From an uncultured Bacteroidales bacterium (GTDB lineage: Bacteria; Bacteroidota; Bacteroidia; Bacteroidales; CAIXZF01), in assembly GCA_964386485.1 (NCBI GenBank), contig CAYLTH010000004.1, positions 318-64,317 on the forward strand: DNA of 64,000 nucleotides, read 5' to 3'. Below, one piece after another: positions 1,409-13,250 of the stretch (its first letter is position 1; every line of letters begins with the position of its first letter). The position numbers were made by a program, and so were the translations under genes. The notes under the pieces were generated by a model. It saw only the letters and a program-made list of their open reading frames with translations, did not search any database and was not told the DNA's origin.

Positions 1409-1475
1409 GCTGGTATATATTCTGTAACTTCGCGGCAATAAACACATTTACTCATCATTCAACAAAAATCAGGCT

Positions 1476-1703
1476 ATGGCAAAAGTAAAAGGCTCGATCG
1501 TGATTGATACAGAGCACTGTAAAGGCTGTGAGGTATGCGTACCTGCCTGCCCGGAAGATGTCATCGCGATGGCAAAGCAAGTTAATAAAAAAGGATATAA
1601 GTATGCACAAACCGTCAACGACAACTGCACGGGATGTACAAACTGTGCGGTAGTTTGCCCCGATGGGGTTATTACTGTGTATAGGATGAAATTAGTCGAA
1701 TAA
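1476..1703 (+). CDS. 2-oxoacid:ferredoxin oxidoreductase, delta (2x[4Fe-4S] ferredoxin-like) subunit
   Basis: 75 aa with two CxxCxxCxxxCP motifs (CKGCEVCVPACP, CTGCTNCAVVCP). First gene of a tightly spaced four-gene set. Confidence 0.85.
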   Translation: MAKVKGSIVIDTEHCKGCEVCVPACPEDVIAMAKQVNKKGYKYAQTVNDNCTGCTNCAVVCPDGVITVYRMKLVE

Positions 1704-1720
1704 CAAAATACTCAGGATTA

Positions 1721-2806
1721 ATGAAAGAGCTCAGATTAATGAAAGGCAATGAAGCCATTTCAGAAGCGGCAATTCGTGCTGGATGTGACGGATATTTCGG
1801 TTATCCGATCACACCGCAATCGGAAATTCTTGAATATCTGATGGCAGAAAAGCCATTTGAGAAAACCGGAATGGTTGTTTTACAGGCAGAAAGTGAAACT
1901 GCATCTATTAATATGGTATACGGCGGTGCTGCCTGTGGTAAAAAAGTATTTACATCCTCCTCCAGTCCGGGTATCAGCCTGATGCAGGAAGGTTTATCGT
2001 ATATAGCCGGAGCAGAACTTCCTGCTCTGATCGTTAATGTTGTTCGTGGTGGTCCCGGTCTTGGTACTATTCAACCTTCACAAGCCGATTATTTTCAGTC
2101 GGTAAAAGGTGGCGGACATGGTGATTACAAACTTATCACCCTGGCACCCAGTTCTGTACAGGAAATGTATGATTTTGTTGGTCAGGGTTTTGACCTTGCT
2201 TTCAAATACCGCAACCCGGTTTTGATTCTGAGTGATGGTGCTATCGGGCAGATGATGGAAAAAGTCTATCTTGAAGATTATAAACCACGCTGGACCGAAG
2301 ATGAAATCAGAAAAATGAGTCCATGGGCTACTTTGGGAAAACCAGCTGATTCTGAACGAACTATTATTACCTCACTGGAATTGGAATCTGCAAAACAGGA
2401 AAAGGTGAATCTTCGGATTCAGGCCAAGTACCGTGAAGTGGAAGCTCATGAAGTGCGTTATGAAGAAATACATGTAGATGATGCTGATTATCTGTTTGTT
2501 GCCTATGGAACAAGCAGCCGTATTTGCCAGAAATCAATCGAGCTTGGCCGCGCAAGGGGGCTGAAAATTGGTTTATTCCGCCCGATCACCCTCTATCCTT
2601 TCCCTGCTGTACGCCTCCACGAACTGGCCGGCAGAGTTAAAGGAATGCTGAGTGTCGAAATGAGTGCAGGCCAGATGGTCGAAGATGTAAAATTAAGCGT
2701 TGAAGGCAGAACCCCGGTAGAACATTTCGGTCGGTTTGGTGGTATTATCCCCTCACCCGATGAAATCCTGCATGCAATGGAAACCAAACTGATGGGAGGA
2801 AAATAA
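1721..2806 (+). CDS. 2-oxoacid:ferredoxin oxidoreductase alpha subunit (KorA/VorB type)
   Basis: 361 aa. The N-terminus (GNEAISEAAIRAGCDGYFGYPITPQSEI) is typical of the OFOR alpha subunit. The stop is 1 nt before the beta subunit start. Confidence 0.9.
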   Translation: MKELRLMKGNEAISEAAIRAGCDGYFGYPITPQSEILEYLMAEKPFEKTGMVVLQAESETASINMVYGGAACGKKVFTSSSSPGISLMQEGLSYIAGAELPALIVNVVRGGPGLGTIQPSQADYFQSVKGGGHGDYKLITLAPSSVQEMYDFVGQGFDLAFKYRNPVLILSDGAIGQMMEKVYLEDYKPRWTEDEIRKMSPWATLGKPADSERTIITSLELESAKQEKVNLRIQAKYREVEAHEVRYEEIHVDDADYLFVAYGTSSRICQKSIELGRARGLKIGLFRPITLYPFPAVRLHELAGRVKGMLSVEMSAGQMVEDVKLSVEGRTPVEHFGRFGGIIPSPDEILHAMETKLMGGK

Positions 2807-2807
2807 T

Positions 2808-3587
2808 ATGGCTACAATTACAGAAGCAGACATCAGGAAACCCGAAAACCTGGTCTATAAAAGAACCAACGTCCTCACCGACAATGTGATGAGTTATTGT
2901 CCGGGTTGTGGTCATGGAACTGCACACCGTATCATCGCAGAAGTAATTGAAGAAATGGGCATACAGGATAAAACCATCGGAGTTGCTCCGGTTGGATGTA
3001 GTGTATTGGCTTATAATTTCTTTAATATTGATATGCAACAGGCCGCTCATGGCCGCGCTCCCGCCGTTGGTACTGCAATCAAACGACTTCTTCCCGATCA
3101 TTTTGTATTCACCTATCAGGGTGATGGCGATTTGGCAGCAATCGGAACTGCAGAAACGATCCATGCCTGCAACCGTGGCGAGAATATGACCATGATCTTT
3201 ATCAATAACGGGATTTACGGGATGACAGGCGGACAAATGGCTCCAACCACCCTGCCTGGCATGAAATCGTCAACCTCCCCCTATGGCCGCGATGTCGCTA
3301 CAATGGGTAATCCATTAAAAATCACAGAATTACTGGCACAATTACCCGGAACAATCTATGTTGCCCGGCATGCTGTTCACACCCCTGCAGCCGTCCGCAA
3401 AGCAAAAAAAGCAGTTCGTAAAGCGTTCGAAAATCAGAAATTAAACAGAGGAACTTCCTTTATAGAGATTGTTTCAAATTGTAATTCCGGATGGAAAATG
3501 ACCCCGAACCAATCGAACAAATGGATGGAAGAAAATATGTTTCCATACTATCCAATGGGCGAAATTAAAGATGTTATCGGGAAGTAA
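2808..3587 (+). CDS. 2-oxoacid:ferredoxin oxidoreductase beta (thiamine-diphosphate-binding) subunit
   Basis: 259 aa. Carries the CPGCGHG cluster motif and a GDGD...NN TPP-binding signature (YQGDGDLAAIG...FINNGIYGMTGGQ). Confidence 0.9.
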   Translation: MATITEADIRKPENLVYKRTNVLTDNVMSYCPGCGHGTAHRIIAEVIEEMGIQDKTIGVAPVGCSVLAYNFFNIDMQQAAHGRAPAVGTAIKRLLPDHFVFTYQGDGDLAAIGTAETIHACNRGENMTMIFINNGIYGMTGGQMAPTTLPGMKSSTSPYGRDVATMGNPLKITELLAQLPGTIYVARHAVHTPAAVRKAKKAVRKAFENQKLNRGTSFIEIVSNCNSGWKMTPNQSNKWMEENMFPYYPMGEIKDVIGK

Positions 3588-3619
3588 ACCCTTAGATTAA
3601 TCAGTTAAAATTCAAGCAT

Positions 3620-4171
3620 ATGACTGAAGAAATTATTATTGCAGGATTTGGTGGACAAGGTGTTTTATCCATGGGCAAAATCCTTGCCTATTCCGGAGTT
3701 ATGGAAGAAAAGGAAGTAAGCTGGATGCCAAGTTATGGTCCTGAAATGCGCGGTGGAACTGCCAATGTTACGGTTATCGTCTCCGATGAACGAATCAGCT
3801 CCCCTATTCTGAGCACATACGATACCGCAATTATCCTCAACCAGCAATCCATGGATAAATTCGAAAGCATGGTTAAACCCGGAGGATTGCTGATCTATGA
3901 CGGAAATGGAATTACCCGCCATCCCGAACGAAAAGACATTAATATTTACCGCGTTGATGCCGCTGATGAAGCCGCAAAAATTGGCCTGTCAAAAGTATTC
4001 AACATGATAGTTCTGGGTGCCTTCCTGAAACTCAAACCCATCGTTGGTGATGAATACGTTCACAAAGGACTTGAAAAATCACTCCCAAAACGCCACCATG
4101 GCATGATCCCCGAAAATGAACGGGCCATTGCTTTGGGTAAAGAAATTGTGAAAGCAATTCAGACTGTCTAA
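3620..4171 (+). CDS. 2-oxoacid:ferredoxin oxidoreductase gamma subunit
   Basis: 183 aa. The N-terminus (IIIAGFGGQGVLSMGKILA ... SYGPEMRGG) is typical of the gamma subunit. Last gene of the operon. Confidence 0.9.
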   Translation: MTEEIIIAGFGGQGVLSMGKILAYSGVMEEKEVSWMPSYGPEMRGGTANVTVIVSDERISSPILSTYDTAIILNQQSMDKFESMVKPGGLLIYDGNGITRHPERKDINIYRVDAADEAAKIGLSKVFNMIVLGAFLKLKPIVGDEYVHKGLEKSLPKRHHGMIPENERAIALGKEIVKAIQTV

Positions 4172-5153: not shown

Positions 5154-6629
5154 GTGCGCTTGCGTAAACTCCTGTCAAATCATCCCCTCAGCTTTTGGAT
5201 CCTCCTTTTGGTGTTTGGGATTTTGTATGCACTGATCTCTTTGGTGAATCATTATAATTTCCGGACCTACGCGTTTGATCTGGGGATTTTCAATAACAGC
5301 CTGTACGATTATGCTCATTTCCAATGGGATAAGTGTACCGTAATGGAACCGGGTTTCAACAATGTATTAAGCGATCATTTCAACCTTATTCCGATTCTCA
5401 TCTCACCTCTATATTGGTTAACAGGCAGTTACACTTTTTTAATACTTCAGATTGCCGGTATATTGTGGGGAGCCGCTGGAATGTACCTGCTCGTTTACAA
5501 TCATGTTAAAAAAGAATGGGCCGGCTTATTGGCGATGGTACATTTTATGACCATGTGGGGTGTATTTTCTGCACTGGCCTATGATTATCATGATAATGTG
5601 ATGGCCGCCATGTTTATGCCCTGGTTTTTTCTGGCAATTCAAACCAATCGTATCCGGTATGCAGCGCTCTGGTTCAGCCTGATTCTCATCAGTAAAGAGA
5701 ATATGGCCTTCTGGATGATCTTTGTGTGTATCGGCATGATGTTGATTTACAGGCATGACCGAAACAAAATGAAAAAACTGGCGGTATTTTCCGGTTCAGC
5801 CCTTCTTTACTTTCTGTTGGTCATGATGGTAATTATGCCGGCACTGGCCGATCCGGGGAAACCCTATCAGCACTTCGATTATCAGGCACTGGGAAACTCG
5901 TTCGGAGAAGCCTTCAAACATCTGGTTACTCAGCCATTTCATTCGATTAGCCTTTTGTTTACCAATCACTTACCGGATTCACTTTACAATGGAATCAAAG
6001 GAGAACTCTGGCTCGCGGTCTTACTGAGTGGCGGACTGGCACTGCTGCTCAGACCTGCATTCTTCATCATGCTGATTCCAATCTTTGCCCAGAAATTGTT
6101 TAGTGATCATTTTGAATACTGGGGAATCAACAATCATTATTCCATCGAATTCGTTCCGGTTATTACCTATGCCGTATATTGGTTTATACAAGGTATTCAA
6201 AATCAACGCGTTCAAAAATATCTCGCGGTACTAATCCTTTTAATTTCTATTGGTGCCAGCTTTAGTTTTCTGGATCACCGGGTTTCTAAACACTATAAAC
6301 GGGCGAATCACCGTTTCTACCAACGCACTCATTATCAGCGCAATTTTGATGTTCAGGAAGTCCATAAATTCCTGAAAACCATTCCCATATCCACAAAAAT
6401 ATGCGCTCAGAATATGTTGGTTCCTCATCTGGCGTTTCGTGAAACAATCTATACTTTCCCGGTAATTAAAGATGCCGATATGATTGTTCTTCTTCCGGCA
6501 GACAGTGATACCTATCCGTTTGCAAAAGTTGATTACGATCGTAGGATTACCGAATTGCTTGAATCCGGAAAATGGAAGAAGCTGGATTCCCCCGAAAGCA
6601 TGCTGGTGCTGACATTAAAAAATGATTAA
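5154..6629 (+). CDS. Polytopic membrane protein, DUF2079-like (GT-C-like fold suspected)
   Basis: 491 aa with a GTG start. It has many hydrophobic segments followed by a soluble C-terminal domain. The N-terminal segment (NHYNFRTYAFDLGIFNNSLY) resembles the DUF2079 signature as I recall it. Confidence 0.55.
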   Translation: MRLRKLLSNHPLSFWILLLVFGILYALISLVNHYNFRTYAFDLGIFNNSLYDYAHFQWDKCTVMEPGFNNVLSDHFNLIPILISPLYWLTGSYTFLILQIAGILWGAAGMYLLVYNHVKKEWAGLLAMVHFMTMWGVFSALAYDYHDNVMAAMFMPWFFLAIQTNRIRYAALWFSLILISKENMAFWMIFVCIGMMLIYRHDRNKMKKLAVFSGSALLYFLLVMMVIMPALADPGKPYQHFDYQALGNSFGEAFKHLVTQPFHSISLLFTNHLPDSLYNGIKGELWLAVLLSGGLALLLRPAFFIMLIPIFAQKLFSDHFEYWGINNHYSIEFVPVITYAVYWFIQGIQNQRVQKYLAVLILLISIGASFSFLDHRVSKHYKRANHRFYQRTHYQRNFDVQEVHKFLKTIPISTKICAQNMLVPHLAFRETIYTFPVIKDADMIVLLPADSDTYPFAKVDYDRRITELLESGKWKKLDSPESMLVLTLKND

Positions 6630-6639
6630 AACCCTCAGG

Positions 6640-6706
6640 AAATCATCATCTCCTCATCATCAAATCATCAAATCATCAAATCTCCAAATCTTCAAATTCT
6701 CCCTCC
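6640..6706 (+). repeat. G-free tract with five consecutive 8-nt units (AAATCWTC-like, 6662-6701)
   Basis: No G occurs on the plus strand between 6640 and 6706. The units are aaatcatc aaatcatc aaatctcc aaatcttc aaattctc. The tract spans the stop codon of the minus-strand transporter and the gap to the DUF2079-like gene. Confidence 0.6.
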
Positions 6707-8031
6707 GATTTTGCAATAACCGCCGAAGCCAGGCAATTTCCGACCACATTCACGGCTGTGCGAGCCATATCCATGAGTTCATCAATACCCAGAATGATAA
6801 ATATGGGTTCGACAGGCAAACCAAAAGAGGCTGCAGTGCCCAATAATATCACAAGTGAAGCCCGTGGAACTCCGGCAACACCTTTGGATGTAAGCATCAG
6901 TGTGAGCATCATCACCAGCTGTTGTTCGAATGTAAGGTGAATCCCGGCTGCCTGCGCCACAAAAATACTGGCCAGACTGAGATAAAGAGTGGTTCCGTCA
7001 AGATTGAAACTATATCCGGTGGGTAATACGAATGCTACAATTTTACGCGGCACACCAAATTTCTCCATGTTCTCCATGGCCAGTGGCAACGCGGATTCCG
7101 AACTGGTTGTTGCAAATGCGATGGTGGCTGGTTCAGACACAGCTTTGATAAACCGTCTAACCGGAATCTTGTAAAACAATGCTATCGGAAGCAACACTGC
7201 AACCACGAAAAATAAGAGTGCCACATACAAAGTCATCAGCAATTTCAGCAGGTTCACCAGAATACCCAGTCCCATATGCCCTACGGTATAAGCAATGGCA
7301 GCACCAACCGCAACCGGGGCAAAGTACATGATCAGATTCGTGAACTTGAACATGGTTTCAGCCAGACTTTCCGAAAAACGCAACATGGGACTCCGGTATT
7401 TCTCACTTACCATGGCAAGCGCTATCCCGAAAAGAATGCTAAAAACCACGATCTGCAGGACCTGCCCTTCGTATACTGCTTTGGCAAAATTCTCCGGAAA
7501 AATATGCAAAATGATTTCCTGAAAAGTTTGCTTCTTAACCTCTTCAATTCCGGAATGTGCTACTGCCGGTAGTTGAATTCCCACACCAGCCTGACTTATA
7601 TTAATGGCAGCAAGTCCAATGAACAAGGCAATTGTGGACACAATTTCAAAATACAACAAGGATTTCCACCCCATGCGTCCTACCTGTTTCAGGCTGGAAT
7701 GCCCGGCAATTCCGACAACCAGGGTAGCGAACAAGAGCGGAGCAATGATGGTCTTGATCATCCGGAGGAATATCTTGCTGAAAATCTGGAGATTCACAGC
7801 AAATTCAGGAAAATCATGCCCGATTTCAGCACCAATAACCATGGAAATAAGAATCCAGGTTGTCAATGACTTACGCATCACAGTAAACCATATGAGTGAA
7901 CCGATAAAAACCCAGCGCATGGCGGTTAAAAAGACCGGATGAAAATCAATAACATGGAATTGATCAAGCATCTGCAGGATTGCAACAATACTCAATAGTC
8001 CAATCGTGGCAATTCCGGCTTTTCGTTTCAT
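6676..8031 (-). CDS. Dicarboxylate/amino acid:cation symporter (DAACS / GltP family)
   Basis: 451 aa. DAACS hallmarks are present: TTSSESALP, PTGYSFNLDGT, TSKGVAGVPRASLV and DELMDMARTAVNVVGN, with the substrate-carboxylate arginine retained. It starts 10 nt after the stop of the upstream Hdr-like gene. Confidence 0.9.
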   Translation of the reverse strand: MKRKAGIATIGLLSIVAILQMLDQFHVIDFHPVFLTAMRWVFIGSLIWFTVMRKSLTTWILISMVIGAEIGHDFPEFAVNLQIFSKIFLRMIKTIIAPLLFATLVVGIAGHSSLKQVGRMGWKSLLYFEIVSTIALFIGLAAINISQAGVGIQLPAVAHSGIEEVKKQTFQEIILHIFPENFAKAVYEGQVLQIVVFSILFGIALAMVSEKYRSPMLRFSESLAETMFKFTNLIMYFAPVAVGAAIAYTVGHMGLGILVNLLKLLMTLYVALLFFVVAVLLPIALFYKIPVRRFIKAVSEPATIAFATTSSESALPLAMENMEKFGVPRKIVAFVLPTGYSFNLDGTTLYLSLASIFVAQAAGIHLTFEQQLVMMLTLMLTSKGVAGVPRASLVILLGTAASFGLPVEPIFIILGIDELMDMARTAVNVVGNCLASAVIAKSEGEFEDLEI

Positions 8032-8041
8032 AGAAACATTT

Positions 8042-9856
8042 TTAATGGGTCAGGACATTGTGCTCAACAAGCGGTTTTACGGCCTGCTTGTGCATGGCCA
8101 TTACAGTTATTTCTGCAATATCGAGCGTTTTGCAAAGATCCTGATTGCCAAGTGTTTTTTTGCACAATGGACAAGCTGTAACAAGGGTATCAGGATTATT
8201 TTCCAATAAAACACCCAGTGCATGATCCTTTAGTGCATCTTTCTGGCGGGAACTCAAGCAGGTATTCCCAAGACTTCCTCCGCAGCACAAAGAAAATGCT
8301 GCTTCCTGTTCGAGGGGTTGTAAATTCCCCATTTGATGAAGTACCTGGCGGGGAGGATTATAAATGCCCAAACCACGTCCGAGTTCACAGGGATCGTGGT
8401 AACTTAACAGCATTCCGGTATGCTCCACTTTGATTTTTTCCTTTTCAATGAGAAGATGAATTAATTCGCTATGGTGCATCAATTTGGCATCAACCTGGTA
8501 ATCTTCTTTGAATGTTTTCAGGCAAATGGGACAAGATGTCACAACAATTACCGGTTTTGATGTATTGATAATCAATTGATTGTGGTCAACCAAAGCCTGA
8601 GCTTCGGAATAGCGTCCGGCCATTTTAAGCGGGCGTCCGCAACAAGCCCCGCCTTGTTCATCCATAAAAAACCAACTCAGACCCGAGGCATTCAGGATGT
8701 CTACCATAGCCTTCTTAATACCGGGATTTAAATGAGTCATGCATCCTGCAAAATACAGTATTTCAGCATGCTGTGTTTTCCCACTGAACAGGTAGGTATA
8801 TGGGTTTTCGGGGGGAGCCGGCTGATATTCAACACGTCTTTGAACCCGGATATCGAGCGTATTGATTTTTACCGGGCAAATTTCCTCGCATCGTCCGCAA
8901 AGCAGGCAATTGAAGGCCTGTTGCTCATCATTCCGGTGATCGCGGATAGAATGAAAAAAATGTCCGGGAGGTATATTTTCCTGATCGATTACAGAGGCAA
9001 GCTGACATTTGTCGATGCAAACACCGCAACGCGGGCATGAAAACAATTCCATCTGACTGAAGTGATCAAACTTTTTTGACGGTTTCAGTTCATAATGACG
9101 GATAAAAATCAATACTACCTCTGCCGGGATATGCAGGTATCGGGTAAACGGGAGGCTTACAAAAAACACACCCAGAACGATGGAATAGGCCCACCAGGCT
9201 GGCAGGATCAGTTGTTCAGCGGGCAGAAATTCAGCCAGAACACGCCCCACATTATCGGTCAGAAATCCCCCCTGGTGATTGACACTGCTGGATAAACTTT
9301 CTGAAATCAACCGAAAAGGGAAAATCGCCCACAAGGCAAACAGCGCGATCCGGTCGCCCTTGTTAATATTGGTAGTTCGCTTTAAACCAAGCAGTCGTGA
9401 ATGCGTGCGTTTAATCAGAGCCAGTACCAATGCCGACAAAACAAACAACAACAACAGATCCATGAGATAGGTAAACAGTTGGTTGAAGGGCATCGTCGAT
9501 TTATCAACCAGCCAGTACTTAAAGAAAATCGGATAATATGGCGGATTGATTTCGGAACCACTATGGATTCGTGTTTCAATATTGCCAATGAGAATCAGTA
9601 AAAACCAGCCAAAAGCAAAAGTCATGTGCATATAGCCTAAAAGTCCGTGTACTCTGAACATTCGCTTATGCAACAGGCTCTCCCGAAAAACCTCGCGGAT
9701 CGCACGCATGGTTTTCCTGGTAAAAACATTCTTCCGGATCAGCTGGCTGTGTTCGGGAGTAAGTTTACGGCTCCAGAGGTAAAAACGGGTCAGCAATGCG
9801 ACCATCATAAAGATCACACCCAGACTGAACGGTATTACAAACGGATTCCAGATCAT
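8042..9856 (-). CDS. Fusion of a NarI/DsrM-like membrane domain with an HdrD/DsrK-like FeS and 2xCCG module
   Basis: 604 aa. About five N-terminal TM helices end in LPFTRYLHIPAE, which resembles the NarI-family PF(T/S)RLxH heme-ligand motif. Next come CPRCGVCIDKCQ and CLLCGRCEEICP. Two CCG-type regions follow (CMTH...CCGRP...CPIC and HDPC...CCGGS...CPLC). Confidence 0.8.
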   Translation of the reverse strand: MIWNPFVIPFSLGVIFMMVALLTRFYLWSRKLTPEHSQLIRKNVFTRKTMRAIREVFRESLLHKRMFRVHGLLGYMHMTFAFGWFLLILIGNIETRIHSGSEINPPYYPIFFKYWLVDKSTMPFNQLFTYLMDLLLLFVLSALVLALIKRTHSRLLGLKRTTNINKGDRIALFALWAIFPFRLISESLSSSVNHQGGFLTDNVGRVLAEFLPAEQLILPAWWAYSIVLGVFFVSLPFTRYLHIPAEVVLIFIRHYELKPSKKFDHFSQMELFSCPRCGVCIDKCQLASVIDQENIPPGHFFHSIRDHRNDEQQAFNCLLCGRCEEICPVKINTLDIRVQRRVEYQPAPPENPYTYLFSGKTQHAEILYFAGCMTHLNPGIKKAMVDILNASGLSWFFMDEQGGACCGRPLKMAGRYSEAQALVDHNQLIINTSKPVIVVTSCPICLKTFKEDYQVDAKLMHHSELIHLLIEKEKIKVEHTGMLLSYHDPCELGRGLGIYNPPRQVLHQMGNLQPLEQEAAFSLCCGGSLGNTCLSSRQKDALKDHALGVLLENNPDTLVTACPLCKKTLGNQDLCKTLDIAEITVMAMHKQAVKPLVEHNVLTH

Positions 9857-9859
9857 AGG

Positions 9860-10180
9860 TTAAAGTATTCGGTTCAGTTCATGGAGCACATTCCGGGTAT
9901 TCACACCCCGCGGGCAGACCAGCTGGCATTTCCCGCACAACATGCATTTGCGAATTTCCTCTTTTAACTGTTTCAGTTCACCCCGGTTCAGCATCAACAT
10001 CATATGCCTCAGACTGAAGCTTGTATAAATTCCGGCTGTGCAGGTGGCAGTACAACTCCCGCATTGAATGCAGGTATCAGCACTTGGTTCCCGTCGAATA
10101 AGCTCAGTGTAGAGACTGTGATCATTCTCATCCCAGACTATCTGCCGGTCGGTTTTTAATCCATATCCCCAATCAGCCAT
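9860..10180 (-). CDS. Small 2x[4Fe-4S] HdrC-like protein
   Basis: I trimmed the 161-aa track ORF to the ATG at 10180 (MADWGYG...), giving 106 aa. That ATG overlaps the HdrA-like stop as ATGGCTGA. Motifs are CIQCGSCTATC and CMLCGKCQLVCP. Confidence 0.75.
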   Translation of the reverse strand: MADWGYGLKTDRQIVWDENDHSLYTELIRREPSADTCIQCGSCTATCTAGIYTSFSLRHMMLMLNRGELKQLKEEIRKCMLCGKCQLVCPRGVNTRNVLHELNRIL

Positions 10181-11213
10181 GATGCTTTTGTTTAAAATAT
10201 TCATCAATCTGAAGGGCTGCTGCCCGGGCATCCGCAAGCGTTTCTTCCACATTTTTTGGTGCTTTGCAGGCTCCGGCGAGAAAAACACCCTGAACCCCGG
10301 ATAATTGTGCACTATAATGTTCATCTGCCGGTTTGAAAAAACCATTCGGATTTAAATCCAGACCAAACATGGTACTGAGTTGAGCTGTGGAAGAAGCCGG
10401 AAGCATTCCAACCATCAGTACCATAAGATCTACATTGAGTCTCAAAGGTTTGGCAGCCAGCGTATCTTCAACCTTGACCATCACACTTCCATCCTGATTT
10501 TCAAATGATTCCGACAGGCGACCCCGGATAAAACGAATCCCATATTTTTCCTGAGCTTCTTTGTATAATTCCTCATAACCCAGTCCAAACATACGCATAT
10601 CCATATAAAAGAGAAATATCTCAGCATCCGGAAGCTGTTGCTTCATTTCTATGGCCTGTTTGACTGCTGTTACACAACACACCTTCGAGCAATGGCGTAC
10701 CCCAACCTTTTCATCACGGGATCCGACACAATGAATAAAGGCAATCCGGTTAAGATCTTCGCCATTCCGTCTTTTTGGCAGCTGATGCTGTGCAAACATA
10801 TACTCCAGATCAGCGGAGGTAATGACATGATCGTAAATGCCATACCCATATTCTTCCTTTCGATGAGCATCAAACACATCAAATCCGGTAGCAATCAGAA
10901 CGGCGTCGGCATGGAAGCTGTTACCAGGCTGATCAAGGAGGATATCAAATCCGTCGTTTACCTTTATTTCCTGGATTGAGGCACCCTTCAGCACTGCAGT
11001 ATTCCCGTCCAGTCTGGCAAGCAAATGATCCAATACTTCATCTGATTTACGAATGGAGGGAAAAAGATGATCCCATTTTCGCAGATGCCCGCCAATTTCC
11101 TGTTCTTTCTCCAGTAAAACAACATAATAACCCATCCTGTCGAGAATGGCAGCAGCCTCAATCCCGGCAGGACCGGCCCCGATTATTGCTACAGTTTTGG
11201 TTTCCGGATTCAT
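10173..11213 (-). CDS. Minimal HdrA-like FAD/[4Fe-4S] flavoprotein
   Basis: 346 aa. It has a dinucleotide-binding fold (VAIIGAGPAGIEAA...LEKEQEIGG). HdrA cluster cysteines are present (FIHCVGSRDE, HCSKVCC, LAGACKAPKN). There are no ferredoxin-type or inserted domains. Its ATG overlaps the HdrB-like stop (ATGA). Confidence 0.8.
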   Translation of the reverse strand: MNPETKTVAIIGAGPAGIEAAAILDRMGYYVVLLEKEQEIGGHLRKWDHLFPSIRKSDEVLDHLLARLDGNTAVLKGASIQEIKVNDGFDILLDQPGNSFHADAVLIATGFDVFDAHRKEEYGYGIYDHVITSADLEYMFAQHQLPKRRNGEDLNRIAFIHCVGSRDEKVGVRHCSKVCCVTAVKQAIEMKQQLPDAEIFLFYMDMRMFGLGYEELYKEAQEKYGIRFIRGRLSESFENQDGSVMVKVEDTLAAKPLRLNVDLMVLMVGMLPASSTAQLSTMFGLDLNPNGFFKPADEHYSAQLSGVQGVFLAGACKAPKNVEETLADARAAALQIDEYFKQKHHG

Positions 11214-12280
11214 ATAAAATTAAGATTCGATGTATGATGGGGTTTTCCGAGATCTTTCCCGTCGAGCCCTTTGTATTTCTTGCTTTTATCGTAAACGATC
11301 CCGATCCGGTCCATCAATGACTCTGCTCCTACCTGATGTACCTGGAGACCCAGATCCCAGGGATCATACCCCAACACCAGTCCGGCCAGTTCCTCATAGG
11401 TCATAACCGGAATGCCCTGCCCGTTGTACCCATAGGTTTTCCCTTCCATTTCACTGATGGCATATTGCCAGCGATCTAGAAACATGGGGCAGCCCGGACA
11501 ATTGGTGAGGATCAGATCAGGATGATAGGGTTCCATGGAATCAAATTTCTTCTTGGAACAGGAGAGTGAATAACCCCGATTCGCTTTTATTACATATTGC
11601 CGGAAGCCAAAACCACAGCAATGACGGCGTTCGGGGTAATCAATCACTTCGCCACCCCATTCTTCAATCATTCCAACCAGAACATAGGGATATTCGGCTC
11701 CGCCCACACCTTTTCCGGGAAACATCTTGGCATAATGACAACCAATATGCTCGACAATCCGAATGGGTTCACCTGTATCTTTATCAACCAGTTTATATTT
11801 TGCTTTAGCGGCAATTTCTTTTCTGAATTTATAGATGATATCGCTGGCATGGGCCAGATTTTCGGGTTTATTGAATTCCCGCTTGGTGGCTTTCCATAAG
11901 AATTCACGAATGCGGGCTTCAATTTCCGGGAAATGGTGCCAGGTATCGAGTACTTCGGTGTACAAACCAAATGATGTTATACAGGAAGGAACAAAATTTT
12001 TATATCCGGCTTCCGTCATCAGTGAGAACTGCCTGGCAACCACCGTCATGGTTGTATCCATTGGAACAACATCCGTGTGATATCCAATTCCGGTGCAGGA
12101 GGTATGGATTGCCTGATCACAGACATCCTTGTTCAATTCTGTTTGCAGTATCTTTAAAAAGGCAGTTTCTGAACCCGGAAAAAAAGTTTGCCGGACACAA
12201 CTGCGTACATAATAATAGTGATCATCAGCGATTTCCTTTTGATAATCCTGCCAGATTTTGCGTTTTCCTTCTTCTTTCAT
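11210..12280 (-). CDS. HdrB-like CCG-domain protein
   Basis: I trimmed the track ORF to the ATG at 12280 (MKEEGKRK...), 1 nt after the upstream stop, giving 356 aa. The C-terminal half has a complete CCG signature (GCHYAK...HCCGFG...NCPGCP). The N-terminal half is a degenerate copy (SCVRQ...SCTG...PSC). Confidence 0.75.
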   Translation of the reverse strand: MKEEGKRKIWQDYQKEIADDHYYYVRSCVRQTFFPGSETAFLKILQTELNKDVCDQAIHTSCTGIGYHTDVVPMDTTMTVVARQFSLMTEAGYKNFVPSCITSFGLYTEVLDTWHHFPEIEARIREFLWKATKREFNKPENLAHASDIIYKFRKEIAAKAKYKLVDKDTGEPIRIVEHIGCHYAKMFPGKGVGGAEYPYVLVGMIEEWGGEVIDYPERRHCCGFGFRQYVIKANRGYSLSCSKKKFDSMEPYHPDLILTNCPGCPMFLDRWQYAISEMEGKTYGYNGQGIPVMTYEELAGLVLGYDPWDLGLQVHQVGAESLMDRIGIVYDKSKKYKGLDGKDLGKPHHTSNLNFI

Positions 12281-12281
12281 A

Positions 12282-12965
12282 TCAACCGTAAATCGTTTTA
12301 AAATAAGGATTGTCCATCCCGTCATCCAGTTTCTCTCCCCGTTCAGCTGCTTTCCTCCTGGAACAATCCTCAATGTGAGCATATCGATTCAATCCGCCTG
12401 TTACTTCAAATATTTTCCTGATTTCATCCATTGATTCTTCCGGAATAGTACGCATAGCCCCGGGGCCGCTTCCCTGAAAATTTGCCCCGAGCCGTGCCAT
12501 TACATCGGGCATATTGGCCAGTTCCCATTCCCACATCGGACCCTGTTCCGGATGATTCTCAAAGCTTATCTCATTGGGAATCAGACAATAACCATGTTTA
12601 AGTATCCAGTCGCCAATTATTCGTTTGACAGCCAGTTGCTGCCGGCCTTTTTCCGACTCTGTAAAAAATCCCATTTCCTGCGAAAGATTCCGCAAGGCCA
12701 TAATGACCAGTCCTGGAGCATTATCCCGCGGGCAGCGTGTTTTACATGACATACATTCGCCGCAGTACCAGATCATGTCCGATTTCAGAAGTTCTTCAAT
12801 CTGCTGTTCATCTTTCGACTGAAGAATATCAATTAATTGTCTGGGGTCATAATTCCAAAATTCAGCCGCAGGGCAGATGGCTGTACAGGTTCCGCAATGA
12901 ATGCAGGCTTTCAGGCCTTCGATGAAGCGGACATCCTGCATCAGTTTATCATAAAGTACTCCCAT
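12282..12965 (-). CDS. HdrC-like 2x[4Fe-4S] protein
   Basis: 227 aa. Motifs are CIHCGTCTAICP and CGECMSCKTRCP. First gene of the operon. Confidence 0.8.
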   Translation of the reverse strand: MGVLYDKLMQDVRFIEGLKACIHCGTCTAICPAAEFWNYDPRQLIDILQSKDEQQIEELLKSDMIWYCGECMSCKTRCPRDNAPGLVIMALRNLSQEMGFFTESEKGRQQLAVKRIIGDWILKHGYCLIPNEISFENHPEQGPMWEWELANMPDVMARLGANFQGSGPGAMRTIPEESMDEIRKIFEVTGGLNRYAHIEDCSRRKAAERGEKLDDGMDNPYFKTIYG

Positions 12966-13048
12966 AATACAGAACTCTCTATTTATTCGTTCGCAAATTC
13001 ATAGCCTGTAGGTTTAAATTTCTAATACAGGCAGATCAGTTGGACGTT

Positions 13049-13056
13049 CAAATTTA
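13049..13056 (-). promoter_or_regulatory. Candidate Bacteroidota -7 box (TAAATTTG) for the Hdr-like operon
   Basis: The plus strand reads CAAATTTA, so the minus strand matches TAnnTTTG. It lies 84 nt upstream of the HdrC-like ATG. Confidence 0.35.
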
Positions 13057-13116
13057 GTGAATTCTCTCCAATCAGGCAATCCCATATCTAATATTTTATC
13101 GATCTGATTGACTAGC

Positions 13117-13132
13117 TGTTAGCATATTAACC
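13117..13132. promoter_or_regulatory. Second copy of the CRP/FNR-like palindrome, TGTTA-GCATAT-TAACC
   Basis: Read directly. It has one mismatch in the right half-site relative to 1393-1408. It lies in the divergent region between the Hdr-like operon and the ompA-family gene. Both copies are preceded by GATTGA. Confidence 0.3.
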
Positions 13133-13250
13133 CTCAAAAAAATTAAATATTTTTTAACAAATATGAACCAAACGGAGTGCTAAATTGTATATTTACCATG
13201 CTGTTGCCCGAACACCACATATAATATAATACTAACCAAACCCCTTTATT

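Follow-up and report, generated by a model that had tools for sequence, protein, structure and literature searches.

A widespread Hdr-type operon of Bacteroidales as a possible menaquinone-coupled source of sulfite

What would an operon of heterodisulfide reductase (Hdr)-type genes do in an uncultured Bacteroidales bacterium? The question is raised by contig CAYLTH010000004.1 (assembly GCA_964386485.1), of which a stretch of 64,000 nucleotides (nt), hereafter the window, was analysed. Six intact open reading frames lie on its minus strand between positions 6676 and 12965, in the order C1, B1, A, F, MK and T. We found that the first five form a variant of the Hdr and Hdr-like sHdr systems that is widespread and undescribed in the literature searched. 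Tentatively, and with a probability of roughly 45%, we propose that the product of this operon is a menaquinone-coupled oxidase of sulfane sulfur that yields sulfite. The genes, the two parts of MK and the upstream region are as follows.

12282-12965, minus strand: C1, HdrC-like ferredoxin subunit of 227 amino acids (aa) with two [4Fe-4S] motifs
11210-12280, minus strand: B1, HdrB-like putative catalytic subunit, 356 aa; C-terminal CCG motif complete, N-terminal one atypical
10173-11213, minus strand: A, short HdrA-type flavoprotein, 346 aa; flavin adenine dinucleotide (FAD) fold and one [4Fe-4S] site
9860-10180, minus strand: F, two-[4Fe-4S] ferredoxin of the HdrC N-terminal-half type, 106 aa
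8042-9856, minus strand: MK, membrane protein, 604 aa
9095-9856, minus strand: N-terminal membrane domain of MK (aa 1-254), five long helices with a putative haem b/menaquinone site
8042-9064, minus strand: cytoplasmic HdrD/HdrCB-like part of MK (aa 265-604), two [4Fe-4S] and two complete CCG motifs
6676-8031, minus strand: T, DAACS (DctA/GltP-type) symporter, 451 aa; lineage-specific sixth gene
12966-13250, minus strand: intergenic region between C1 and a divergent OmpA-like gene, the probable promoter region of the operon

Gene order and distribution of the operon

An earlier note on this DNA, made from the sequence alone, had described six packed minus-strand genes that form one operon-like unit built of Hdr-type subunits. 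Its coordinates and all five junctions were reproduced exactly when recomputed from the sequence (+1, -4 (ATGA), -8 (ATGGCTGA), +3 and +10 nt), and the operon-like unit was borne out. The shorter starts of B1 (356 aa) and F (106 aa) are supported by homologues in other genomes, whose alignment begins at residue 1.

A pattern scan over one genome per species identified at least 597 genomes with an HdrA relative, and the best 80 loci were examined for their gene neighbourhood, a check that the note had suggested. Out of these 80 species loci, 72 carry C1-B1-A-F-MK in that order, a recurrence far beyond chance, six are cut by a contig end and two (L019 and L054) contain A-F-MK without adjacent C1 and B1. 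T was found downstream of MK in none of the 80. This indicates that the conserved unit comprises five genes and that T is a stable lineage-specific addition. Consequently the six-gene unit of the note did not stand, and its substrate, an 'imported (di)sulfide or dicarboxylate', rests on a gene that is specific to one lineage. The Hdr-type operon and the sHdr-like layout of the note were retained; sulfite had not been considered there.

Nearly all of the best 80 loci are labelled Bacteroidales, Bacteroidota or families therein. Carriers include Rikenellaceae, Odoribacter, Butyricimonas, Culturomica, Muribaculaceae, Marinifilaceae, Prolixibacteraceae, Lentimicrobiaceae and Gaoshiqia, and the only exceptions in labelling are one Syntrophothermus and one plain 'bacterium'. 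The former is a Firmicutes-labelled metagenome-assembled genome (MAG) of Syntrophothermus sp. (L013, JBLNAN010000251.1) in which a 3.7-kb contig holds a Bacteroidales-type B1-A-F-MK, with B1 76% identical to that of the window; it is probably a binning contaminant and not a true occurrence outside Bacteroidota. The number of species genomes with an HdrA relative also means that the system is neither a rarity nor an oddity in Bacteroidota. No description of a Bacteroidales Hdr-like system was found in the literature searched, nor any link of Hdr-like genes to sulfonolipids, in agreement with the note, which knew of no described equivalent in this phylum.

Over the 80 loci the subunits share with those of the window a median identity of 69% (B1), 57% (C1), 50% (A), 49% (F) and 42% (MK); B1, the putative catalytic subunit, is thus the most constrained. 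We are dealing with a respiratory-type complex that is conserved across hundreds of Bacteroidales species, among them gut inhabitants of humans and animals (Rikenellaceae, Odoribacter, Butyricimonas and Muribaculaceae), and whose database labels ('heterodisulfide reductase subunit' or '(Fe-S)-binding protein') carry a risk of being misread as methane metabolism in metagenome surveys. The flanks of the operon are otherwise variable, a cysteate synthase gene being the exception.

Subunit architecture and relation to known systems

Each protein of the operon was searched against Pfam and NCBIfam models, and the domain assignments of the earlier note held, with one caveat on the NarI-type call for MK. 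C1, which holds two CX2CX2CX3CP motifs, matches several Pfam Fer4 dicluster families and the NCBIfam HdrC models (71-86 bits, cut-off 350); among 68 homologues its eight cluster cysteines are kept at 99-100%, and Cys127 without exception. B1 matches HdrB across its full length (NCBIfam 139 bits, cut-off 450; PDB 9sfi_C, 102 bits), with Pfam detecting the C-terminal CCG domain only. The cysteines of this domain (C181, C221, C222, C261 and C264) are kept in 98-100% of homologues. At the N-terminal site only C28, C62 and C100 remain, together with H59 and H68 (97-100% of homologues), and 'TSFG' stands in place of the second half of the CxxC. The B1 family is small: among 1.84 billion representatives, 695 clusters are reached at E <= 1e-3 and 66 at 1e-30. 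A scores 255 bits on NCBIfam HdrA (cut-off 1100). With methanogen HdrA it shares the thioredoxin-reductase-like core (229 bits; HdrA residues ~141-203 and ~310-568 only), and it lacks the N-terminal, inserted and C-terminal ferredoxin domains of that protein. A collinear alignment with sHdrA of Hyphomicrobium denitrificans (PDB 6tjr, 191 bits) spans residues 6-335, and C162, C175, C179 and C180 of A are invariant. F matches Pfam Fer4_17, Fer4_8 and Fer4_9 as well as the NCBIfam HdrC models; all eight cysteines of its two [4Fe-4S] motifs are invariant in 60 homologues and its position between A and MK is constant. All Hdr-type scores are far below the NCBI equivalog cut-offs, indicating that none of these proteins is an orthologue of the methanogen enzymes.

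In MK, Pfam detects Fer4_8 and two CCG domains (70 bits). The best NCBIfam model for the soluble part is TfrB (117 bits, cut-off 385), followed by LdhH (cut-off 800) and GlpC (cut-off 278), with DsrK at 56 bits (cut-off 400), so that all scores are far under the cut-offs. No Pfam or NCBIfam model of a NarI-type domain matches residues 1-255. An AlphaFold2 model of MK built on 40 homologues (pLDDT 86.6, pTM 0.80) has helices at residues 5-30, 71-99, 125-151, 166-193 and 213-237, and a Foldseek search with this model returned a full-length match to EtfD of Mycobacterium smegmatis, a structure solved by cryo-electron microscopy (PDB 9ojn, E = 3.4e-21, TM 0.74 (TMq)), with HdrB chains ranking next. 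EtfD contains one haem b, liganded by His78 and His241, near a menaquinone site and an Fe-S cluster chain (PMC13083937). MK His77 and His242 fall at the positions of these ligands; both are conserved in 99-100% of 74 homologues, as are His63, the eight ferredoxin cysteines and all ten CCG cysteines. The model supports a putative haem b/menaquinone-binding membrane domain at the N-terminus of MK, and the whole protein is predicted to have the EtfD/EMO-type architecture, with haem-b membrane domain, ferredoxin and two CCG domains in one chain. Of the NarI/DsrM-like five-helix domain that had been proposed, the haem-b membrane character is thereby backed by the predicted fold, and the profile match is missing.

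The closest systems to this set are the sHdr complexes, which exist as type I (shdrC1B1AHC2B2) and type II (shdrC1B1AHB3-etfAB-emo) and are always accompanied by LbpA and by TusA, DsrE or rhodanese sulfur transferases (PMC11094781). They are proposed to convert protein-bound sulfane sulfur to sulfite (PMC11094781, PMC6067878), in type II with electrons passing to (methyl)menaquinone via EMO (PMC11094781). With type I, found in Hyphomicrobium denitrificans, Aquifex aeolicus and Acidithiobacillus, the window shares the C1-B1-A order, a short sHdrA-type flavoprotein (~340 aa, FAD and one [4Fe-4S]) and a second arm consisting of a ferredoxin and a protein with two full CCG motifs. In contrast to type I, the operon contains no H gene, its A and F overlapping by 8 nt, and the equivalent of the separate B2 is fused to a ferredoxin domain and a predicted five-helix haem-b membrane domain. 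The hosts also differ, being anaerobic heterotrophs in place of sulfur lithotrophs. Type II shares the C1-B1-A core and, in EMO, which we take to be an EtfD-type membrane protein, a proposed route to menaquinone. It has B3 and H, however, both of which are missing from the window. There the EMO-like MK belongs to the operon itself, with the 106-aa ferredoxin as its link, and its CCG cysteines are of the catalytic type. Inspection of the window and of the 80 species loci, made without an etf query, showed no etf-like gene. Since no H, B2, B3, LbpA or TusA was found with it, the operon belongs to neither sHdr type, although it is built alike.

Other systems are more distant. EtfD shares the full-length fold of MK at 17% identity, but it is 1042 aa long, has shielded CCG clusters that have lost ligands (Thr539, His583), is described as non-catalytic and has ETF as its partner (PMC13083937), whereas MK keeps its ten cysteines and is encoded with Hdr subunits. 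HdrDE of Methanosarcina and DsrMK of sulfate reducers also combine a membrane cytochrome b with an HdrD-type subunit that has two noncubane-cluster motifs and is linked to quinone or methanophenazine, but as two separate subunits and not as one fused chain. There was no sign of their substrates (CoM-S-S-CoB and the DsrC trisulfide), and dsr genes were not noticed in the window or the loci, where no specific search was made. Methanogenic HdrABC has homologous A, B and C subunits, B1 aligning with HdrB over its full length, but the window A lacks the ferredoxin domains, the N-terminal CCG of B1 is degenerate and there is no Mvh or Fdh partner. QmoABC comprises two HdrA-like subunits and QmoC, a fusion of HdrC and HdrE, beside aprAB, whereas the window has a single HdrA-like gene; the QmoC model gives 48 bits (cut-off 300), on the ferredoxin part of C1 only, and no apr genes were noticed nearby. 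Compared as a whole set, the operon therefore corresponds to none of sHdr types I and II, HdrABC, DsrMK/HdrDE and QmoABC, as had been claimed for its composition.

The closest named relatives outside Bacteroidales belong to cyanobacteria (Picosynechococcus, Planktothrix and Phormidium) and Ca. Altiarchaeales, which are not known as sulfur oxidisers. They are 42-48% identical to the window in B1, 43-46% in A and 46% in C1, and they have the same atypical N-terminal B1 motif. Most of these clusters end in a soluble C2-B2 arm where the window has F-MK: the layout is C1-B1-A-C2-B2 in Picosynechococcus, Planktothrix and a probable cyanobacterial contig (L171), and C1-B1-A with a ferredoxin-CCG (C2-B2-like, B3-like) fusion in L172. 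Both exit arms occur in one cluster on a non-Bacteroidales contig (L169:4552-11511, C1-B1-A-Fd-F-MK-C2-B2), which has an extra ferredoxin of 83 aa and an MK orthologue of 632 aa; with those of the window its F shares 46% and its MK 36% identity, and its B1 is 80% identical to that of a Ca. Altiarchaeales cluster. A constant C1-B1-A core with varied second arms indicates that the second arm is an exchangeable module. The earlier description of a membrane quinone-module fusion in the B2 slot of an sHdr-like order is therefore sound.

Two of the cyanobacterial clusters adjoin further genes of interest. On a plasmid of Picosynechococcus sp. PCC 7003 (NZ_CP016476.1, L165:8242-13982) C1-B1-A-C2-B2 is followed 5 nt on by a gene for a 428-aa FAD oxidoreductase, which is sulfide:quinone reductase-like (best NCBIfam model the type III enzyme, 83 bits, far below the cut-off). 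In L171 (4099-11659) the cluster is directly preceded on the same strand by four genes, encoding a Lactamase_B-rhodanese fusion of persulfide dioxygenase-fusion architecture, a rhodanese-YgaP protein, a TauE family protein and a 155-aa protein. Of note, distant B1 relatives (29-33% identity) also occur in Methanomassiliicoccales (P0279 and P0407) and Methanosphaera (P0314 and P0416). Their N-terminal CCG grades from single-Cys to fully classical, and they look like ordinary or near-ordinary HdrB paralogues.

Cysteate synthase and the direction of the reaction

Cysteate synthase condenses O-phosphoserine and sulfite to cysteate, the precursor of sulfonolipids. A gene for this enzyme (484.8 bits on TIGR03844, cut-off 324.9) directly follows MK on the same strand in seven of the 80 species loci, with gaps of -14 to +219 nt, and is close by in two more. 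In a Muribaculaceae MAG (L083) it overlaps MK by 14 nt and a SulP permease gene by 1 nt, and C1 is preceded by a MarR gene at a distance of 3 nt. An independent search that set out from cysteate synthase found Hdr-like genes directly upstream in 17 of the 80 best metagenomic loci; most of these have the full operon and four are cut by a contig end or lack C1-B1. The order in L102 is MarR-A-F-MK-cysteate synthase-SulP. The recurrent fusion of the operon with cysteate synthase points to sulfite, and in cysteate-making strict anaerobes, which need sulfite, the fused operon is a concrete candidate for its producer.

In three further loci a gene for an FNT-family anion channel of 279 aa takes the place of the operon between MarR and cysteate synthase (L096:9154-9993, L108:9160-9999 and L133:9149-9994). 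The channel reaches 246 bits on TIGR00790 (cut-off 232); its gene shares 8-17 nt with MarR and stops 3-4 nt short of cysteate synthase. The flanks match those of the Hdr-carrying loci (carB-MarR...cysteate synthase-SulP-EamA, followed by the same downstream gene set). Replacement of the operon in situ by a channel fits both being ways to obtain sulfite. The known human-gut producers of sulfonolipids are Rikenellaceae (Alistipes) and Marinifilaceae (Odoribacter) (PMC11525784), and in the species scan the operon is carried by Rikenellaceae, Odoribacter, Butyricimonas and Culturomica. The word 'sulfite' is absent from the sulfonolipid papers that were searched for it.

A different arrangement is seen in L156 (11353-12843), where cysteate synthase is followed by genes for an ArsR/SmtB regulator, which faintly resembles the sulfite-sensing BigR (29 bits), for a rhodanese-domain protein of 129 aa and for a membrane protein of 260 aa that appears TauE/SafE-like by eye and has no NCBIfam match. 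This may be another sulfur-handling neighbourhood of cysteate synthase.

From what was observed of gene content, order, cofactor motifs, fold, distribution and neighbourhoods, we favour a sulfite-producing enzyme because of its sHdr-type core, its EtfD-type MK, the link to cysteate synthase, the FNT swap, the sulfur-gene contexts and the taxonomy of sulfonolipid producers. Within this proposal, and held as tentatively, the five subunits would form a membrane-bound flavo-Fe-S complex of the sHdr kind with a direct connection to the menaquinone pool. The Fe-S site of B1 would oxidise thiol-bound sulfane sulfur, a persulfide or polysulfide that stems from sulfide or cysteine, to sulfite, and electrons would pass via C1 to the FAD and [4Fe-4S] cluster of A, then through the small ferredoxin F and the Fe-S chain of MK to haem b and menaquinone. 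The intact CCG pair of MK may have a further role in the turnover of a dithiol/disulfide carrier, which has been proposed for sHdrB2. Menaquinol would be re-oxidised by fumarate reductase, as we assume for Bacteroidales, and the physiological role would be an anaerobic supply of sulfite to cysteate synthase, and hence to cysteate and sulfonolipids. The 1977 values of Thauer are reportedly about -116 mV for HSO3-/HS- and about -74 mV for menaquinone. With potentials this close, menaquinone-linked sulfite formation would be near equilibrium and could be pulled by fumarate reduction and sulfite consumption.

A more specific version, which we put at rather less than an even chance, sees C1-B1-A-F-MK as an anaerobic sulfide/persulfide:menaquinone oxidoreductase that is the missing sulfite source for gut sulfonolipids and a third, LbpA-independent and directly quinone-coupled type of sHdr. 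If so, sHdr chemistry would reach from lithotrophic sulfur oxidisers to fermenting or fumarate-respiring heterotrophs, as a modular family with a constant C1-B1-A core and swappable electron-exit arms (C2-B2, B3-like fusion or F-MK), and the immunomodulatory sulfonolipids of strictly anaerobic gut Bacteroidales would have their source of sulfite.

Several points weigh against a sulfite-producing oxidase. Its substrate, direction and product are deduced only from homology and gene neighbourhood, and the comparison of B1 covers HdrB models and PDB chains. The companions of sHdr are missing: LbpA/GcvH-like genes gave no tblastn match and no TusA-motif open reading frame was found in ~160 loci and the window, both searches being of limited sensitivity; no sHdrH was found in the window or the 80 species loci; and no DsrE-type sulfur transferase is among the recurrent flanking families, the only place where DsrE was looked for. 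The earlier note, too, had seen no gene for a lipoate-binding protein, TusA or DsrE nearby. Oxidation of sulfane sulfur to sulfite with menaquinone is slightly uphill under standard conditions. The link to cysteate synthase is drawn from gene neighbourhoods. In the MK tree the cysteate-synthase-linked operons form one deep clade, with cysteate synthases 58-75% mutually identical, so that the link is old and retained and may trace to a single event. Adjacency is confined to this clade and does not extend to the Rikenellaceae-type clade; the human-gut cysteate synthase loci, probably from Alistipes, do not adjoin the operon, and no cysteate synthase was found across the 64 kb of the window. Finally, in the variant loci L102:6343-11272, L054:8001-11206 and L019:880-4035 the A-F-MK genes are without adjacent C1-B1, which are either encoded elsewhere or dispensed with in a reduced complex.

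The foremost alternative, which we regard as unlikely, is that the complex works in the HdrDE/DsrMK direction, as a menaquinol-driven reductase of a low-molecular-weight or protein disulfide, persulfide or polysulfide with a respiratory or thiol-recycling role. MK alone has the complete HdrDE/EtfD architecture, and its ten CCG cysteines are invariant as in catalytic HdrB, unlike the non-catalytic CCG of EtfD (PMC13083937). The hosts are anaerobic, a 2-oxoacid:ferredoxin oxidoreductase cluster lies next door in the window, and the direction would agree with the imported disulfide of the earlier note. Such a reductase leaves unexplained, however, the need for C1, the atypical B1 and A and their stronger conservation than that of MK (69% versus 42% median identity), as well as the fusion with a sulfite-consuming enzyme and the replacement by an anion channel, and no candidate gene for a disulfide carrier is conserved nearby.

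The neighbourhood ties the operon to sulfite but leaves the direction unfixed, and the complex might be a sulfite consumer, a siroheme-independent sulfite reductase of reversed-sHdr type that detoxifies or respires sulfite as a second sink co-regulated with cysteate synthase. FNT channels do include hydrosulfide channels tied to sulfite reductase operons, and TauE family proteins adjoin the cyanobacterial relatives. However, we know of no Hdr-type enzyme that reduces sulfite, quinol-driven sulfite reduction is endergonic under standard conditions, and two competing consumers, one of them swapped for a channel, are less parsimonious than a producer and a consumer. We consider this reversal improbable. 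The same holds for a CCG-domain organic-acid oxidoreductase (TfrB, SdhE, GlpC, GlcF or LutA type) acting on a C4-dicarboxylate or hydroxy acid taken up by T or, in other lineages, by the DauA-like SulP permease. The best models for the soluble part of MK (TfrB at 117 bits, then LdhH and GlpC), for T (DctA and GltP) and for the SulP adjoining the operon (DauA, 520 bits) all lead in this direction, but the MK scores are far below the cut-offs of 385, 800 and 278 bits, a flavoprotein partner of the Sdh/Frd, Glp, Glc or Lut kind is absent, conservation of the operon does not extend to the transporters, and C1, B1 and A are specifically Hdr-type. A non-sulfur, flavin-based bifurcating or confurcating module coupling menaquinone to ferredoxin or NAD(P)H has little probability, since A lacks all the ferredoxin domains and no MvhD, Flx, hydrogenase, formate dehydrogenase or NAD(P)H-binding partner is conserved beside the operon, although HdrA is the bifurcating flavoprotein of methanogenic HdrABC (PMC6085437, PMC13083937) and the host is a ferredoxin-based anaerobe.

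The transporter, the upstream region and other flanking genes

T belongs to the DAACS family (PF00375, 391 bits, gathering score 27.9). Its best NCBIfam models are DctA (376 bits, cut-off 513) and GltP (360 bits, cut-off 638), both below the cut-off. A TcyP-like cystine importer was set aside, the DctA and GltP scores being at about the level of close relatives and SstT reaching only 98 bits. T begins 10 nt after MK in the window, and in L167 the two genes share 4 nt. The relative P0004 (64% HdrA identity) has T as well, and the gene is thus retained solely in the near lineage of the window. Both T and the SulP of the cysteate synthase clade resemble carriers of C4-dicarboxylates or aspartate, judging from their best models, and such carriers could supply an electron acceptor or move cysteate-like solutes. 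In the sulfite-producing scheme T may import a C4-dicarboxylate or acidic amino acid, as precursor of an electron acceptor or as a cysteate-like solute, which is the least supported step of the proposal.

Beyond T, the window contains a four-gene 2-oxoacid:ferredoxin oxidoreductase cluster on the plus strand (1428-4171), encoding a small ferredoxin, a POR_N/PFOR_II protein, a TPP-binding subunit and a gamma subunit. This cluster and a DUF2079 membrane protein gene (5154-6629) are syntenic with the operon in L167/L168 and P0004.

On the other side, the 285 nt upstream of C1 are the sole long gap in the gene cluster. They contain a single copy of a Bacteroidetes-type -7-like motif (TAAATTTG, 13049-13056, minus strand), which is weak promoter evidence because the motif is not enriched across the window. 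An Rfam scan for an RNA element or riboswitch upstream of the operon gave nothing above noise, and scans for sigma-70 promoters and terminators gave chance-level counts with zero sites at the gene junctions.

In the Rikenellaceae-type clade, MK is followed on the same strand by a gene for a predicted lipoprotein of 182 aa in 17 loci (L065:11929-12477 and 16 others), usually ahead of a convergent purL; the protein has no Pfam or NCBIfam match. In other lineages the genes after MK or cysteate synthase look unrelated (KAS, MscS, MiaA, radical SAM, CinA, nitroreductase and [FeFe]-hydrogenase). In a single Bacteroidales MAG a pyridoxal phosphate-dependent enzyme of Cys/Met metabolism (L008:7023-8204; PF01053, 524 bits) is encoded 11 nt after MK, and could be a source of sulfide or persulfide.

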